A stretch of 30,952 bases of DNA from a virus (taxonomy: Duplodnaviria; Caudoviricetes): the IMG/VR virus record IMGVR_UViG_3300011337_000246, positions 1-30,952 of that record; one strand, written 5' to 3'. A program made the position numbers and the translations under genes. Under the pieces are notes generated by a model that was given only the letters and a program-made list of their open reading frames with translations, was not told where the DNA came from and ran no database searches. This document shows, piece by piece, positions 5,625 through 25,137 of the stretch (its first letter is position 1; the number at the start of each line of letters is the position of its first letter).

Positions 5625-6149
5625 ATGCAAAAAGAAATTTGGAAAGATATACCTAATTATATTGGGATATATCAAGTAAGCAACTTAGGAAATGTTAAAA
5701 GTTTATCAAGAGTTATTAAAAGAGAAACAAGTAATTTTTCTGTAAAAGAAAAGATTTTAACACCTAAAGTTTGTGGCGGTGGGTATTATCAAGTCTGTTT
5801 ATGTAAAGAAAATGAAAAACATAAATATATTAAAATACATCAATTAGTTGCAACTTGTTTTTTAAATCATATACAAGATGGGACACAAAAAATAGTTGTA
5901 GACCATATTGATAATAATACCAAAAATAATAAAGTAGAAAACTTACAACTAATTTCACAAAGAGAAAATAGTTCAAAAGATAAAAAGAAAAACAAAGTAA
6001 GAACATCTATTTATACTGGTGTTAGTAAAAGTAAAAATAATAAGTGGAGAGCATCTATAACAATAGGTAAAAAAAATTATAATTTAGGTGAATACAAATG
6101 TGAGTTAAAAGCATTTTATATTTACAATAAAAAAGTAATCTCATTATGA
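5625..6149 (+). CDS. NUMOD4-HNH homing endonuclease with AP2-like C-terminal domain
   Basis: EIWKDIPNY.G.YQVSNLGNVKS (NUMOD4); HQLVA..F...VDHIDN...NN...NL (HNH); YTGVSK...KWRASI...LG.Y (AP2-like). Confidence 0.9.
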   Translation: MQKEIWKDIPNYIGIYQVSNLGNVKSLSRVIKRETSNFSVKEKILTPKVCGGGYYQVCLCKENEKHKYIKIHQLVATCFLNHIQDGTQKIVVDHIDNNTKNNKVENLQLISQRENSSKDKKKNKVRTSIYTGVSKSKNNKWRASITIGKKNYNLGEYKCELKAFYIYNKKVISL

Positions 6150-7596: not shown

Positions 7597-7662
7597 AGTA
7601 GTTTTTTGTAGATTCGTTTCATTAATTTGGTTAAGAGCCCTGACATAGTTGGGGCTTTTTTT
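7597..7662 (+). ncRNA. candidate ~65-nt small RNA
   Basis: Promoter, then a U-rich ORF-less stretch, then an intrinsic terminator; 17-nt perfect complement to 11188-11204. Confidence 0.45.
7633..7662 (+). terminator. intrinsic terminator
   Basis: AAGAGCCCTGAC-ATA-GTTGGGGCTTTT stem followed by a T tract. Confidence 0.8.
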
Positions 7663-7664
7663 AT

Positions 7665-7672
7665 TACATTTG
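7665..7672 (+). promoter_or_regulatory. -7 promoter element (TACATTTG), probably giving a leaderless spanin mRNA
   Basis: TAnnTTTG ending 4 nt before the ATG at 7677. Confidence 0.5.
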
Positions 7673-15879: not shown

Positions 15880-16182
15880 ATGCCGATTAAAGAAGAAAAT
15901 AAAAAACGTTATCCGAAAAACTGGAAGCAGATTTCAGAACGAATAAGATTTGAACGTGCAAATAACAAGTGCGAAGTATGTGGCTGCGAAAATTATCAAC
16001 CACACCCAATAACTGGAAGCAAAGTCATTTTAACAGTTGCACATTTAGACCATCAGCCAGAAAATTGCCAAGACGATAATTTAAAAGCGATGTGTCAAAA
16101 GTGTCATAATAATTATGATAGGCAGCATAGAAATCAAACTGTCCGTCAAAGCCGATTAAAAAACCAAATGTCGATGTTTTAA
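15880..16182 (+). CDS. cassette 4 HNH-family endonuclease-like protein
   Basis: YP.NW..IS..IR..RA..KCE.CG, LTVAHLDH.PEN....NL.A.CQ.CH..YD. Confidence 0.8.
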   Translation: MPIKEENKKRYPKNWKQISERIRFERANNKCEVCGCENYQPHPITGSKVILTVAHLDHQPENCQDDNLKAMCQKCHNNYDRQHRNQTVRQSRLKNQMSMF

Positions 16183-19295: not shown

Positions 19296-19753
19296 AGCCT
19301 GATAGACTTTACTTAGTGGATATAATTGTAAGCGACAAGTCATTTAAAGAAATGTGCTACAAGATAAATACACACTATGCTGAAGACATTTATCAAGAAA
19401 CTATATGTGAAATTTTAACCATAGCAGATGAACGATTGCCCGACCTTAACTACTTAAAGTTTTGGTTTTACCGAGTTGCTTTTAACGTAATGTCACGCAA
19501 TGGTAAGTTGGGAAAGATAGTACTAAGAGAGGTGATTGAATTTGACATCTATACACCAAGTGAAATAACTAAGGAAATAATGACAAGGGAAGCCGAGCAA
19601 TTCATGCTTTCCTTAAATGAGTTCGAGAATAGAATTATACTTTTGTATAATCAATTTGGGGACATGAAGAAAGTTCAACGATTAACTGGGATTAGCTATT
19701 CGGCACTTAGGGCAGTCAAAGAAAAAATAAAACAAAAAGCTAAAGAAATATGA
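19292..19753 (+). CDS. ECF/sigma-70-like transcription factor
   Basis: AEDIYQE....I and WFYRVA.N (region 2-like); L...E..I..LY......KV..LTGISY..L (region 4 HTH). Confidence 0.7.
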   Translation: MKPDRLYLVDIIVSDKSFKEMCYKINTHYAEDIYQETICEILTIADERLPDLNYLKFWFYRVAFNVMSRNGKLGKIVLREVIEFDIYTPSEITKEIMTREAEQFMLSLNEFENRIILLYNQFGDMKKVQRLTGISYSALRAVKEKIKQKAKEI

Positions 19754-20823
19754 TTAAATTACTAATAGTAGTTCCCAGTTACCCAAAGACAAGCGGAGTT
19801 GATTATCATAGGTTGCTAATGCCTCACCAGGTGATGTCAGACCTATTTAAAGATGAGATTGAAATAAGTCTAATAAATGAAGTGGACAGCGCAACAGATG
19901 AGTTTTTAAAGGACTTTGATTTAGTAGTAATGAATAGGTTTGCATCAAAAACAAATGAGCCTGAACTATTGATTGAGAAACTAAAAAGAGTTGGGCTACC
20001 TTATGTTATGGATTTGGATGATGACTATATCCTTCCTAAAAATCATATCTTATACTATGTAGCGAATGATGGCAACCACACTAAACAAATAGGCTTAGCA
20101 GTTAAGCACGCAACCGCCTGCACCGTCACTCATGAACTATTAGGTAACACATTGAACAAAGAATTAGGGCAAAAAAATATTTACATAGTCCCAAATGGAA
20201 TTTATCCTGATGGACATTTTGCGCTAAAAGAAGTACAAAAGAGTAATAAGTTGAATTTCGGATGGAGTGGTTCAATCACACACTTAGAAGATGTTATTCT
20301 AATGCACGATGGTTTGTATTCGTTATACACCGCAGATGATTACAAAGAAAAGTTCAGAGTAGTTTATGGTGGGTTTGCAAGTCAATCCGAAACAAGTCAA
20401 GCTATACTTAGCGTGTTGAGTGCAAGGGGTAAAGCAAGTGAATCTCAATTTGGAATCTTTAAAGAAACAAGTGTAGGCGAATATGGAAACTTTTATGACC
20501 TTATAGATGTTTCTCTAATACCACTAAGAAATAATCGTTTCAATAATAATAAATCAAACCTTAAACTTTTAGAATCAGGATTTAAAATGAAAGCGGTTAT
20601 TTGTAGTGATGTTTACCCTTATTCACCTGACCTTAAACATGGGGTTAACTGCTTAAAAGTTAAACACAAGAACGACTGGTACAAACATATGACCAAACTA
20701 ATAGACAATCCGAACTTAGTTGAAGACTTAAGGGCGCAGTTGTATATTGATGTGCAACGATATCACATGGCTAATGTGGCAACAGAACGATTTGAAGCAT
20801 ATAAGGAGATTTTAGGATGTTAG
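19750..20823 (+). CDS. GT-B (GT4-like) glycosyltransferase
   Basis: GVDYHRL..P, DLDD, VPNGI, GWSGS.TH..D, D.SLIPL....FN..KSNLKLLE, VICSDV.PY. Confidence 0.85.
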   Translation: MIKLLIVVPSYPKTSGVDYHRLLMPHQVMSDLFKDEIEISLINEVDSATDEFLKDFDLVVMNRFASKTNEPELLIEKLKRVGLPYVMDLDDDYILPKNHILYYVANDGNHTKQIGLAVKHATACTVTHELLGNTLNKELGQKNIYIVPNGIYPDGHFALKEVQKSNKLNFGWSGSITHLEDVILMHDGLYSLYTADDYKEKFRVVYGGFASQSETSQAILSVLSARGKASESQFGIFKETSVGEYGNFYDLIDVSLIPLRNNRFNNNKSNLKLLESGFKMKAVICSDVYPYSPDLKHGVNCLKVKHKNDWYKHMTKLIDNPNLVEDLRAQLYIDVQRYHMANVATERFEAYKEILGC

Positions 20824-21062
20824 AATTATTAGGAATACCTTTTTTACTTATTTCATTTTTTACAATGACAAGTTTACCAAGTTGGTTAGACTTCAAACCT
20901 TTTAACTGCATTGTGTGCCTTTCTTTTTGGTGTACATTATTTGCATCATTATTATTTATCTTTGCACCAACATTGCAACCTTATTTGATTGCATTAGGTT
21001 ATGGTGGCTATGCAAGCTACTTAGCTATGATTATGAAACGTATTTTAATTAAATTATACTGA
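20817..21062 (+). CDS. small membrane protein with CxxC
   Basis: KPFNC.VCLSFW; three hydrophobic segments. Confidence 0.6.
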   Translation: MLELLGIPFLLISFFTMTSLPSWLDFKPFNCIVCLSFWCTLFASLLFIFAPTLQPYLIALGYGGYASYLAMIMKRILIKLY

Positions 21063-21358
21063 TGAAAACTTTTGACGAAATTTACCAAGAAATAATTTTT
21101 AAGGATGACACGATTCGTTATTCAATGCGAGAACTCCTGCACGTTTTTCAGACAGAGAATAGTTGGATAGGACAAACACATCAACTTTTGAGCCTAAAAG
21201 AATTTCAACATGAATTAACTGGAATAAGACCAGGCGGTTGTTCAGGATGTAACATTGAGGTATTGCAGAATATGATTCGATGGGTGAACAAATACGAAGC
21301 GGATAAGGCAGCACAAGACACAATTAAGAAAGCAGGGAGACCAAAACGCAATGGATAA
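21062..21358 (+). CDS. hypothetical protein with CxxC
   Basis: CSGC motif; C-terminal KKAGRPKR. Confidence 0.6.
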   Translation: MKTFDEIYQEIIFKDDTIRYSMRELLHVFQTENSWIGQTHQLLSLKEFQHELTGIRPGGCSGCNIEVLQNMIRWVNKYEADKAAQDTIKKAGRPKRNG

Positions 21359-22019
21359 AATAGTTTATTCTCATAGCGGTGGACATGGTGACATGATTTA
21401 TTCTTTAGCAGTTTGCAAAAGGATAGGTGCAGGTTTTTACAGAACAAATTTTGATGATGTGTATTATCGCAATATAAAACCATTGCTTGAAGAACAGCCT
21501 TACATCATTGAAGTATTATCACGAAATTCAAACGAAAGTATAACACATAATCTTGATGACTTTAGAAACATGGGTGGACTTGGAGACATTCCTTTGGTTA
21601 GAAACCATTTAAAAGCATTTAATTTAAGTGAAGATAATTGGAATGAGAATTGGTTAACCATAACACCTAAGAGCTTAATTGAGGGCGAATATGCACTCGT
21701 AAATGTTACACCAAGATATCCTGCAAGTGGTTTTGATTGGCAGTCTGAAATAGACTATTTGAAATCAAAGTACAAACAAGTATTTTATGTAGGCTATCAA
21801 GATGACATGACACCACCATTTAATTCATTAGAATACTTTAAAACAAACGATGCACTCGAACTTGCCCAGTTGATAAACGAAGCAGAAATTATAAGTTGCA
21901 ATCAATCATTTGCTTTAACGATAGCGCAAGGATTAGGAAAGAATTATAGATTAATGGTTGCAGATAACCACACTAACTGCATACATAATGTACCAAACGA
22001 AACACTTTTAAATAGATGA
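21351..22019 (+). CDS. GT9/heptosyltransferase-like glycosyltransferase
   Basis: HSGGHGDMIYSL, PLLE.QPYI.EV, LELAQLI..A.....NQS....IA.GLGK. Confidence 0.65.
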   Translation: MDKIVYSHSGGHGDMIYSLAVCKRIGAGFYRTNFDDVYYRNIKPLLEEQPYIIEVLSRNSNESITHNLDDFRNMGGLGDIPLVRNHLKAFNLSEDNWNENWLTITPKSLIEGEYALVNVTPRYPASGFDWQSEIDYLKSKYKQVFYVGYQDDMTPPFNSLEYFKTNDALELAQLINEAEIISCNQSFALTIAQGLGKNYRLMVADNHTNCIHNVPNETLLNR

Positions 22020-22657
22020 TAATAGACCAACACGAATATAAAATAAACGAACAAGGGGTGCTTCAACAAGTAAACCCTAATATTATAACTTATGACTCTG
22101 ATTATGTAACATCAAGATATGGTGCAATAATTGAATTAAGAAAACAAATGAGTATGTTGAGATTTGGCTACTTATTGGGATGTATTGGCAAACCTACTAA
22201 GATACTTGAAATCGGTTATGGTGCAGGTGACTTTATCGAATTATGTGCAGAGCAAGGCATTGAATGTTTTGGCAATGACATAACTGGAATACCAACACCG
22301 CCAAAAGTAACACCAACACAGAATTTATATGAGCAAGTTGATGTAGTTTGTATGTTTGATGTATTGGAACACTTTGAAGACATTAATTTTATCAAAGACC
22401 TTAACACTAAGTATGTTTACGTTTCAGTTCCTAACTGCGACCAACCAAATAACATTGATTACCTAATGAGACATTACATACATTTAAGACCAAATGAACA
22501 TCTACACCACTTTAATAAGTCTTCACTAATAGAACACTTTAAGTTAAATGGCTATAAACTAATAACCATCTCAAACTGCGAAGATACTATAAGGAAAAGA
22601 CCAAATACACCGATTAATATTTTATCTGCTATCTTTGAAAAAGAAAATTTAAGCTAA
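22016..22657 (+). CDS. class I SAM-dependent methyltransferase
   Basis: ILEIGYGAGDF, DVVCMFDVLEH, SVP and P.EHLHHF motifs. Confidence 0.85.
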   Translation: MIIDQHEYKINEQGVLQQVNPNIITYDSDYVTSRYGAIIELRKQMSMLRFGYLLGCIGKPTKILEIGYGAGDFIELCAEQGIECFGNDITGIPTPPKVTPTQNLYEQVDVVCMFDVLEHFEDINFIKDLNTKYVYVSVPNCDQPNNIDYLMRHYIHLRPNEHLHHFNKSSLIEHFKLNGYKLITISNCEDTIRKRPNTPINILSAIFEKENLS

Positions 22658-23061
22658 TGGGAAAAAATAAATTTATTGAAACACCCGAAAAGATGTGGGA
22701 ATACTTTGAAGCATATCGCATTAAAGTAAAAAGCAACCCTATTTTAGTTCAAGACTTTGTTGGTAAGGATGGCGATGAGGTAAACAGAAAGAAAGAAAGA
22801 CCATTGACATTGGAAGGTTTTGAACTCTATTGTTACGATAACGACATTATAAGCGATTTAAGCCACTATTTTGCAAATTTAGATAATAGGTACAGCAATT
22901 ATGTAGCTATCTGTTCACGTATAAGGAAAACTATCAAGGATGACCAAATACAAGGAGGTATGGCAGGAATCTACAATCCAAGCATAACACAGCGATTAAA
23001 TGGGTTAACTGATAAGAGTGAAATTAAGCATATCGAACAACCACTTTTCCCCGATAAATAA
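22657..23061 (+). CDS. terS: terminase small subunit (P22 gp3-like DNA-packaging protein)
   Basis: ETPE.MW..F..Y, RPLT.EGF, I..DQI.GGM.G.YN.SITQRLNGL; upstream of TerL. Confidence 0.8.
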   Translation: MGKNKFIETPEKMWEYFEAYRIKVKSNPILVQDFVGKDGDEVNRKKERPLTLEGFELYCYDNDIISDLSHYFANLDNRYSNYVAICSRIRKTIKDDQIQGGMAGIYNPSITQRLNGLTDKSEIKHIEQPLFPDK

Positions 23062-23138: not shown

Positions 23139-24353
23139 ATGTTCAAACGTACCACAGCTATAAATAGATTATTGGAGTTATCCGCCCGAAAGAAAATCAT
23201 TCAGGGTGGGACTTCCTAATATCCCCTTATGAGTAATTGTAAGGGGGACTAATCAGCAGGAAAGACATTTGGAATACTTCCTATACTAATTGATAGGGCA
23301 GCAAAGACACCACATCTTGAAATAAGTGTAGTGAGTGAAACCATCCCACATTTGCGCAGGGGTGCAATGAAAGACTTTTTAAAAATAATGGAATGGACTG
23401 GAAGGTACAATGATAATAATTGGAATCGTTCATTACTTACTTATCGTTTCTCAAATGGTTCTTATATAGAGTTCTTTAGCGCAGAAATGGAATCTAAGTT
23501 AAGGGGTGCAAGAAGAAACATCTTATACATTAATGAGGCGAATAATATAACCTTTGAATCTTACCATCAATTAGCAGTCCGAACAAGTGGAGAAATATGG
23601 TTAGACTTTAATCCAACAAATGAATTTTGGGCGCATACCGAGTTGATGAATGACCAGGACACTGAACACATCATTCTAACTTATAAAGACAATGAGGCAC
23701 TACCCGATACTATTATACACGACATTGAGGCTGCGGAACTAAAAGCTAAGACATCAACATATTGGGCGAATTGGTGGCAAGTTTATGGACTTGGGCAAGT
23801 GGGAAGTTTACAAGATGTAATATTTGACCAATGGAAGCAGATTGACACGATACCTGAGAAAGCAGAACTTGTAGGACATGGAATGGATTTTGGATTTACA
23901 AATGACCCGAGCACACTTGTAGCAATTTATAAGTATGAAGGCAAACTAATTATAGATGAGTTACTATACCGAACGAATATGACCAACAACGATTTGGGTA
24001 ACTTTTTAAAGTCAATCCAATTTGGGCGCAAAGAATTGATATGTGATAGTGCCGAGCCTAAGTCAATAGAAGAGTTAAGGCTGCAAGGTTTCAATGTCAG
24101 ACCTGCGGTTAAAGGTGCAGATTCAATCAAGATAGGAATAGACATTTTAAAGAGATACGAAATTCAAGTGACAAAGAACTCTACTAATTTAATCAAAGAA
24201 TTGAGAGGTTACACTTGGGAAAAAGACAACGAAGGCAAACTAACTGGAAAGCCAATAGATAGTTTGAACAATTGCGTTGACCCTATGAGATATGTCGCAC
24301 TAATTAAATTAAACAATCGCCCGAGTGGTAAATATTCAACAATTTCAATTTAA
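23139..24353 (+). CDS. terL: terminase large subunit (PBSX-like), interrupted by a 39-nt insert in Walker A
   Basis: MFKRTTAI...IIQGGTS|stop-insert-stop|SAGKTFGIL, all in one frame; Walker B LYINEAN, LDFNP, GMDFGFTNDP, DSAEPKSI, D.MRY. Confidence 0.9.
23217..23255 (+). other. coding gap with hairpin (candidate translational-bypass element)
   Basis: TCC-TAA-TA-TCCCCTTATGA-GTAA-TTGTAAGGGGG-AC-TAA-TCA; skipping 39 nt restores GGTSAGKT. Confidence 0.65.
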
Positions 24354-24370
24354 ACTTATATTTATAAAAG

Positions 24371-24994
24371 ATGATAGGCAATTACAACCAACTTACGATT
24401 AAGCAGTTTTTAAAGATTAAACTAATTAGCGAATTAGAACAAGACCCACTTCACAGAAAGGTTTTAATCTTGAGTGAGATTAGTGGGCAGTCAGTTGATG
24501 ATATCGAAAGTATGCCAATAGGGGATATGATTGAGGCATTGAAAGGATTGGATAAAATTGAGAATCTACAAACTGATGAAAAGATTAAATTGAAGTTCAA
24601 AGTAGGTGGCAGGAGATTCATTGTTAAGTGGAAAGAACAAGAGTTAACGAGTGAACAGTTCATTGATGTAAGTCACTTTTGTAAAGACCCTGACAAGATA
24701 TTGAGCAACATACATAATATACTTGCTTCGGTTTGTGTGGAACGTAATTGGTATGGAAAGGAATTAGGGTACAAAGGCGAAAAGCACAAAGAGGTAGCAG
24801 ACTTGTTTTATAACGAAATGAAAATATCAACTGCATATCCAATCATGCTTTTTTTTTGCAAATATTACGAGGCATTGCATCGAAATATCCTAACCTTTTT
24901 GGAATCGGAAGCGAACCAGGCGATGAAGAACACGAAGGAACTAATGGAGAAATTCAAGGATTTAGAGAAAAGTGGGGATGGATTGCAAGCATAA
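24371..24994 (+). CDS. tail assembly chaperone-like protein (G form)
   Basis: LTIKQF..I, LT.EQFID and A.....FF motifs; T9 slippery run at 24849-24857. Confidence 0.55.
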   Translation: MIGNYNQLTIKQFLKIKLISELEQDPLHRKVLILSEISGQSVDDIESMPIGDMIEALKGLDKIENLQTDEKIKLKFKVGGRRFIVKWKEQELTSEQFIDVSHFCKDPDKILSNIHNILASVCVERNWYGKELGYKGEKHKEVADLFYNEMKISTAYPIMLFFCKYYEALHRNILTFLESEANQAMKNTKELMEKFKDLEKSGDGLQA

Positions 24995-25137
24995 ATGAGA
25001 TATGCAAAGATGACCGAACAAAATGGGATTACTTTTTTAAGATGAATGTAATTGAGTTCTTGAACACGATGACATTTTATAAAGACAAAAGCGAACACGA
25101 TAAAGAAATATGGACAAGGCAGCAGCAGCAGCAATAG
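24849..25137 (+). CDS. -1 frameshift extension (GT form) of the chaperone
   Basis: The -1 frame at the T run reads ...KYPNLFG...FREKWGW...FLN...F.KDK and has no strong start of its own. Confidence 0.6.

Follow-up and report, generated by a model that had tools for sequence, protein, structure and literature searches.

To our knowledge, ribosome hopping is very rare in nature, and knowledge of long programmed bypassing in bacteria derives from a single studied element, gene 60 of phage T4 with its homologues. The T4 MobA element was reportedly the subject of work by Bonocora in 2011.

In the available part of the account by Manning and Atkins (bioRxiv 10.1101/2022.08.31.505936), gene 60 has a 50-nt bypass with a MobA HNH cassette, and homologues occur in myovirus topoisomerase genes. 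The logic described for the topoisomerase genes comprises a nuclease, an element-borne 5' piece and a bypass insert that protects the target, the nuclease being swapped or lost. In the terminase of the Streptomyces phage phiHau3, gaps of 7–10 nt begin with the rare codon UUA; such gaps were given for 3 of 100 genes and proposed to be regulatory, and the junction peptide was found by mass spectrometry in E. coli with a UAA variant (PMC10732093). The byps of Magnusiomyces mitochondria are mobile inserts of 27–55 nt with imperfect codon matches that are ascribed to two-of-three pairing; a 29-nt hop in Prevotella loescheii appears in the same source and was left unfollowed (PMC5009743). The stem of dnaX, which acts in frameshifting, has 11 bp, stands 5 nt past the slippery site and slows translocation and A-site binding at a distance of 11–12 nt from the first base of the P site (PMC8861025). 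A list of bypass cases in a 2024 preprint, in its available part, names gene 60, terminase candidates and Magnusiomyces only, and our own literature search, with thin coverage of subscription papers and supplements, found no published hairpin insert in a Walker A motif.

Here, we describe such an insert in the large terminase gene (terL) of a viral genome. On the strength of sequence comparison, we estimate at about 80% the probability that it is a programmed ribosomal bypass that would shield a nuclease target, like T4 mobA/gene 60 and without homology to it.

Results

A 39-nt gap interrupts the Walker A motif of terL

The window, that is, the whole stretch of 30,952 nt analyzed here, had been annotated initially from its letters alone. 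That annotation read terL as an ATG at 23139, TCC, TAA, a hairpin, a second TAA and then TCA GCA GGA AAG ACA, and it was right to the base (Table 1). The spacer between terS and terL is 77 nt and holds no nuclease gene in this genome. Past the gap, the frame stays open up to the terminal TAA, and Terminase_3 and Terminase_3C are found in the 3' block; the rest of the gene is intact, as had been claimed. Skipping the gap restores Walker A, again as annotated, and gives a predicted 391-aa TerL with the loop GGTSAGKT, which intact relatives have more often than any other loop (67 of 111 distinct intact alleles). Among ORFs with a start codon of their own, the longest begins at GTG 23331 and lacks Walker A. 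We conclude that removal of the gap is essential for TerL and that the insert is real, conserved and mobile.

Table 1. Features of the terminase region in the window
Feature	Position	Strand	Remark
terS (small terminase, GP3_package)	22657..23061	+	Pfam PF16677, E 4e-9
terL 5' coding block, 26 codons, ending ...QGGTS	23139..23216	+	
Recoded tract, ~24 nt, homR-like	23193..23216	+	silent, co-travelling with the insert
Proposed take-off codon TCC (Ser26)	23214..23216	+	putative role
39-nt coding gap inside Walker A of terL	23217..23255	+	
TAA right after take-off	23217..23219	+	not needed family-wide
C-rich/G-rich hairpin, 10 bp, GUAA loop	23223..23246	+	6 nt past the take-off codon
SD-like purine run AAGGGGG	23241..23247	+	doubles as the stem's 3' arm; stops 5 nt upstream of TCA
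Second in-frame TAA	23250..23252	+	
Proposed landing codon TCA (TCG in L137)	23253..23255	+	
terL 3' coding block, AGKT to TAA (24351-24353), 365 codons	23256..24353	+	Terminase_3, Terminase_3C

The hairpin had been annotated with 11 bp and a GTAA loop. The loop stands, and the stem has 10 bp, the eleventh pair being a terminal U·G that is unpaired in the fold. Its minimum-energy fold reaches −13.7 kcal/mol (z −2.4; 3 of 200 shuffles equal it), and among 10306 windows of 36 nt along the genome, 16 fold equally well. The stem alone is unexceptional, so the case against chance rests on comparison with relatives. No second element of the same design was found in this window.

Other features of the window were observed in passing. 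A run of genes at 19750-22657, glycosyltransferase-like and methyltransferase, precedes terS (Methyltransf_23 at 22016-22657, the rest by eye). In the gene after terL (region 24371-25137), a T-run at about 24848-24856 would allow a −1 shift into an overlapping ORF (24856-25137), which by its look we take to be a tail-assembly-chaperone frameshift. The window's strongest hairpin, followed by a T-run, lies past a metallophosphoesterase gene (7624-7670) and is probably an intrinsic terminator.

The insert recurs in close relatives, with compensatory changes in its stem

Relatives were taken as the best 80 of 338 viral loci. Among these 80, 14 carry an identical-type 39-nt insert, one carries a 40-nt variant and 49 are intact; the other 16 fell outside the motif and comprise 14 intact genes with GGTSASKT and two contigs that begin inside the gene. 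Within the same best 80 of 338, a visible 5' end and an identity of 95% or more are shared by 18 loci, 14 with the insert and four without. An assembly artefact, which the initial annotation had raised, is not borne out, as the insert occurs in 14 other IMG/VR contigs and in contigs of four public runs. The latter, from two studies, span the insert without a gap; they come from relatives, at depth 3–5, and have no power to show or exclude splicing.

Alignment of relatives had been proposed as a check, and it yielded inserts at the same site with compensatory stem changes. Across the eight variants of the window's subfamily, 80 of 80 stem cells are paired, with one A-U/G-C pair swap (4:4) and two wobble changes (U·G to C-G and G·U to A-U). 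This conservation of pairing was reached by 7 of 500 shuffles, a figure inflated by relatedness. The loop is GNRA in seven of the eight variants.

Close pairs of insert-bearing and intact alleles also differ by a silent tract directly 5' of the site. Between L008 (insert) and L011 (intact), we counted nine differences in the last 24 nt and one in the preceding ~50 coding nt; the 5' end of the window's terL carries the insert-type codons of this tract.

A codon is copied at both ends of the insert in three registers

We collected a wider family by pattern and protein scans, the patterns covering gaps from 25 to 55 nt and certain wordings of Walker A. After L479 (an 18-nt "gap") and L421 had been dropped as chance matches outside terL, the family comprised 56 distinct inserts in 75 distinct alleles, set against 111 distinct intact alleles; the inserts are related by descent and do not represent 56 independent events. 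Scans that specified the Walker A flanks and the gap, leaving hairpin and partner codon free, returned terL inserts at 58 of 59 loci (39 distinct). Their flank patterns leave both codon copies free in the Ala register and fix one of them in the Ser and Gly registers. A looser pattern, with at least 120 matches, met mostly chance sites and sites that we take for P5/Q motifs of group I introns; the overlap with the latter goes back to the codons for S-A-G in the exon, and we discounted it as a coincidence.

The inserts are 31–50 nt long, and all hold a stop or a frameshift. At their two ends a codon is copied in one of three registers, Ser4 in 12, Ala/Ser5 in 37 and Gly6 in 7 (n = 56). The take-off and landing codons agree at positions 1 and 2 in 49 of 56 inserts, with the third base free, and the landing triplet ends in A in 45 of 56. 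The initial annotation had entered as a caveat that TCC and TCA are synonymous and not identical; such pairs turn out to be the rule, identical codons occurring in 3 of 56, and the caveat becomes support. Among the 39 inserts of the flank-only scans, 34 show the codon match and five are GCY..GUN. The mismatches in the family (7 of 56) are likewise all GCY..GUN, with GUA or GUU, a C-to-U change at position 2. Val stands at the landing position in 0 of 111 intact alleles; the upstream Ala codon therefore appears to be the one decoded, and the downstream GUN triplet is probably undecoded. In the Ala register, the landing triplet begins with G in 35 of 35 and continues with C or U in 35 of 35, and the preceding four bases vary. 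Such a G-(C/U)-N constraint is what re-pairing of a tRNA would predict, since a G in the anticodon accepts either C or U, and is not what splicing or template jumping would.

Could the gap instead be skipped at the level of DNA or transcription, by recombinase excision or by a polymerase jump between 2-nt repeats? The codon copies do amount to 2-nt direct repeats around an inverted repeat in 49 of 56 inserts, and intact alleles are known at 97–98% protein identity. Those near-identical alleles, however, use different codons (AGT for Ser) and are not excision products; a precisely excised form was found at 0 of 545 loci. The repeats always occupy codon positions 1 and 2, and the seven C-to-U mismatches, which fit G·U pairing by a tRNA, would be C·A mispairs in a transcript. 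We regard this explanation as very improbable.

Each insert of the family forms a C-rich/G-rich hairpin that keeps its place relative to the take-off codon whichever codon is used: from take-off to the C-run the distance is 6 nt in 40 inserts, 7 nt in 15 others and 5 nt in the remaining one (n = 56). Compared with base shuffles, the inserts of the family fold with a median z of −5.1 and a weakest z of −3.4. A minor second stem that encloses the take-off codon is predicted only in the Ala register (mean −4.3 vs −1.2 kcal/mol in intact alleles). The shortest insert, of 31 nt with GGA at both ends, is that of L427, whose TerL loop is GGTWAGKT.

Two elements of the initial annotation are present in the window and vary in the family. 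A TAA does follow the take-off codon here, but a stop stands directly past take-off in only 7 of 56 inserts, all in the window's subfamily, of which L354 has AAA at this place, so it is not the family-wide trigger. In 20 of 56, a stop stands one codon further on, after a codon that is free to vary. The codon after take-off is most commonly TTT or CTT, is TTA in 5 of 56 and is a common sense codon in 49 of 56. The SD-like run before the landing codon is likewise present, but it doubles as the 3' arm of the stem and lies 4–14 nt from landing family-wide (5–7 nt in 29 of 56).

A mini-intron, cut from the mRNA by a protein nuclease and a ligase or by a trans-acting ribozyme, with the hairpin bringing the ends together, would also be served by a hairpin conserved with covariation and a GNRA loop, and nucleases are generally linked to introns too. 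One cut in the window has a U ahead of the 5' site and a G as the 3'-terminal base, and it yields GGTSSGKT, a loop predicted for L452, L438 and L451 as well; such group-I-like ends in the window's subfamily count against bypassing. Yet U/G ends are available to just 11 of the 56 inserts, no pair of end dinucleotides occurs in more than 14, and the ends track the reading frame in three registers, a pattern not expected from splicing. A contig from an RNA library is unspliced across the insert, with no 39-nt joint, a weak point given that it comes from contigs at depth 3.5 that may be DNA. The Rfam scan of the window gave no family below E 0.11 and no intron family. We therefore hold a mini-intron to be unlikely. 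A group I intron with its own core was rejected outright, 39 nt leaving no P3-P7 core and Rfam being blank, in agreement with the initial view that the insert is too short to splice itself.

Both coding blocks of insert-bearing terL evolve under purifying selection

In nine Ser-type alleles, pN/pS was 0.20 for the 5' block and 0.15 for the 3' block; in 17 Ala-type alleles, the values were 0.24 and 0.19. These are uncorrected ratios, since JC-corrected dS saturates for the Ala-type 3' block. The 5' block opens from a Met in 74 of 74 cases, and none of the 64 complete 3' blocks falls short of 350 codons. Insert-bearing terL is under purifying selection on either side of the gap, and the gene is alive. 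On a TerL tree of 164 sequences with deep branches, the insert state has undergone at least 18 gains or losses.

These data bear on the idea that nothing is removed, the gene being dead, its stops being read through or its product working as two pieces once translation restarts. At 39 nt, the insert of the window keeps the frame, and it has an in-frame ATG; the record has a single terL match and is 91% complete (CheckV), so a second terL is conceivable. That ATG, however, runs into TAA before the 3' block, and the next start, at 23331, lies beyond GKT. Read-through is contradicted by the 24 of 56 inserts whose length is not a multiple of three, including the 40-nt frame-shifting sisters of the window's insert (L034, L159 and L354), and by TAA being also terL's own terminal stop; ARAGORN found no tRNA in the window and hence no suppressor tRNA candidate. 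A dead gene does not fit the selection on both blocks, with 0 broken among the 64 complete 3' blocks, or the persistence of the insert across the tree. We find this idea scarcely credible in any of its three forms.

The insert is linked to homing nucleases upstream of terL

A nuclease gene of the NUMOD4-HNH or GIY-YIG-like kind lies directly upstream of terL in 29 of 64 insert alleles vs 1 of 98 intact alleles, counted where 700 nt of flank were present, with profiles built from the insert-linked nucleases and with intact alleles, unlike insert alleles, sampled by protein similarity. The nuclease gene overlaps or abuts the start of terL. Pfam agrees, with 51 insert-side ORFs and, from the 75 distinct upstream ORFs of 96 intact alleles, only that of L318. 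In 13 independent tree pairs, a mean of 6.3 pointed in the same direction and 0 in the opposite one (sign test, median p 0.03, range 0.004–0.25). L009 and L014 combine the window's insert type with an intact-looking 182-aa NUMOD4-HNH gene; the window and most of its sisters have no nuclease upstream of terL.

Given this linkage, origin from a mobile cassette explains the insert better than regulation of TerL level. A limit on TerL level had been suggested in the initial annotation and found no support; the link to homing nucleases explains the insert as target protection.

The locus L233 (73-990) has a terL stub that ends in TCC TAA and the start of a hairpin like that of the window. Next comes an HNH-like ORF (Pfam E 0.05); terL then starts a second time, and an Ala-type insert of 50 nt follows. 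The Rfam scan of L233 gave no intron family. With its Ser-type stub and Ala-type insert, this locus may represent one cassette that landed on another.

Several variations on the upstream slot were noted. In L318 (1960-2427), the sole intact allele with an upstream NUMOD4-HNH gene, that gene is shortened as in L034; the insert may have been lost, or the nuclease may be dead. The slot before terL is otherwise filled by a DNA methylase (L447:1297-1941) or an unassigned 136-aa ORF (L005:451-858). At L007:1064-1561, a NUMOD4-HNH gene with a terS-like N-terminus lies ahead of a different terS, another case of a nuclease together with duplication of a 5' end.

The window itself has a free-standing NUMOD4-HNH gene at 5625-6149, between putative holin and endolysin genes. 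It was rejected as the partner of the insert, being only 28% identical to the terL-linked nuclease. A further ORF (15880-16182) has an HNH-like motif by eye and no Pfam match below E 0.09.

The nearest cultured relatives have an uninterrupted terL

The best cultured relatives are Flavobacterium phages, with 53% identity and an uninterrupted terL, followed by Bacteroides phages. Five of 1223 cultured-phage records, two of them with an alignment length suggestive of an insert, were checked, and in all terL is annotated as a single CDS of normal length. A blastn search with the insert region returned three chance matches only. The nearest cultured phages and the rarity of SD motifs point to a host among the Bacteroidota. 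No host carrier of the insert was found: 52 of 52 genome-scan matches are unrelated to terL, and among 401 Flavobacteriaceae-level genomes 32 fit a loose pattern, about as many as in the reversed control, with no hairpin among the matches listed.

A model for the origin and expression of the insert

The initial annotation had proposed bypassing with take-off at TCC and landing at TCA, and the inserts and codon pairs of relatives make this the best-supported reading, for which we propose the following mechanism. We infer that the insert forms the bypass part of a homing cassette. At its origin, a free-standing NUMOD4-HNH or GIY-YIG nuclease would cut intact terL at the Walker A codons, and repair would copy the nuclease together with a recoded 5' piece of terL and the insert; the copied insert would destroy the nuclease target. 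Loss of the nuclease would frequently follow, as in this window.

On expression, the 26 codons would be translated, with the Ser codon decoded and passing into the P site. On reaching the mRNA entry channel, the GC-rich stem, located 6 nt further on, would stall translocation. With the codon before take-off in the P site, stems stand 11–12 nt from its first base, the same as the stalling distance of dnaX, which suggests hairpin-stalled translocation as the trigger. Peptidyl-tRNA-Ser would release TCC, the ribosome would pass the hairpin, and the peptidyl-tRNA would re-pair at TCA by two-of-three pairing, with decoding resumed at GCA to give the 391-aa TerL. The stops in the gap may be traps that end ribosomes which miss take-off, and low efficiency may suffice for a terminase.

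Several findings weigh against bypassing. The set of T4 triggers is mostly missing (stop, take-off codon in the main stem, UUCG loop). There is no element-specific nascent peptide, the 26 residues being near-identical in the intact alleles L011-L013. Pairs such as TCC/TCA and GCT/GCA demand relaxed wobble of the host tRNAs. SD motifs are rare in this phage (4 of 49 starts), which makes a mini-SD step doubtful.

Discussion

The family described here is independent of gene 60 and sits in a different essential gene, and its 56 natural variants differ in codon, length, frame, loop and stop. With such variants, the requirements of a hop signal become directly testable; the minimal module, below 50 nt plus 26 codons, is of reporter size. 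Bypass inserts would offer homing nucleases a third route, besides introns and inteins, into those codons that a gene conserves most. A practical consequence is that these terminases are truncated by gene callers before Walker A.

Somewhat beyond even odds, in our judgment, is the broader proposal that these inserts form a second class of programmed bypass, distinct in mechanism, on ordinary bacterial ribosomes. The class would consist of a portable module of 31–50 nt from which a peptidyl-tRNA for Ser, Ala or Gly lifts off and lands by two-of-three or G·U pairing, with a hairpin 5–7 nt downstream and neither a stop nor a special nascent peptide; three kinds of nuclease gene would use it, within the Walker A codons of terL, in place of an intron and with no ribozyme involved.

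The described systems are compared here as far as the available parts of their accounts go. The stem-loops of dnaX and HIV cause a −1 slip on a slippery heptamer and not a hop of 31–50 nt, so the likeness is one of geometry only (PMC8861025). Like the gaps of phiHau3, the inserts are non-coding blocks at conserved motifs of a large terminase (PMC10732093); unlike them, they are 31–50 nt long, contain a hairpin and are linked to nucleases, and a start on UUA with a gap of 7–10 nt is not their pattern. Byps depend on relaxed mitochondrial ribosomes, an unused codon in the A site and many sites, whereas here there is one site and a bacterial host, and the codon after take-off is in most inserts an ordinary sense codon.

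The closest likeness is to MobA/gene 60. In both, a short insert in an essential phage gene has paired codons whose position shifts by a codon between clades; the third base may differ, the stop is sometimes absent and GNRA loops occur. In both, an upstream free-standing nuclease (HNH or GIY-YIG) is swapped or lost, a recoded piece of the host gene (homR) is carried along, and near-identical phages exist with and without the element; the layout of L233 is that of a MobA element. Of the features of the T4 set, paired codons are present, a linked nuclease is present in the family (L009, L014) and absent from the window, a stop follows take-off in the window and is otherwise the exception, and the mini-SD stands at the T4-like spacing in the window and varies in the family. 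Insertion into a topoisomerase gene with CTE/NTE extensions is absent, as is a take-off codon within the stem.

The differences begin with the host gene, which is terL at Walker A and not a topoisomerase gene. The codons are Ser, Ala and Gly vs Gly and Asp, with third-base pairs past ordinary wobble (C or U to A) and seven second-position G·U cases. The main stem starts 5–7 nt after the take-off codon and does not enclose it, and there is no UUCG loop. With a 5' block of only ~26 codons, the gene is not divided into two. Overall, the insert works like the T4 mobA/gene 60 family and is not a member of that family.
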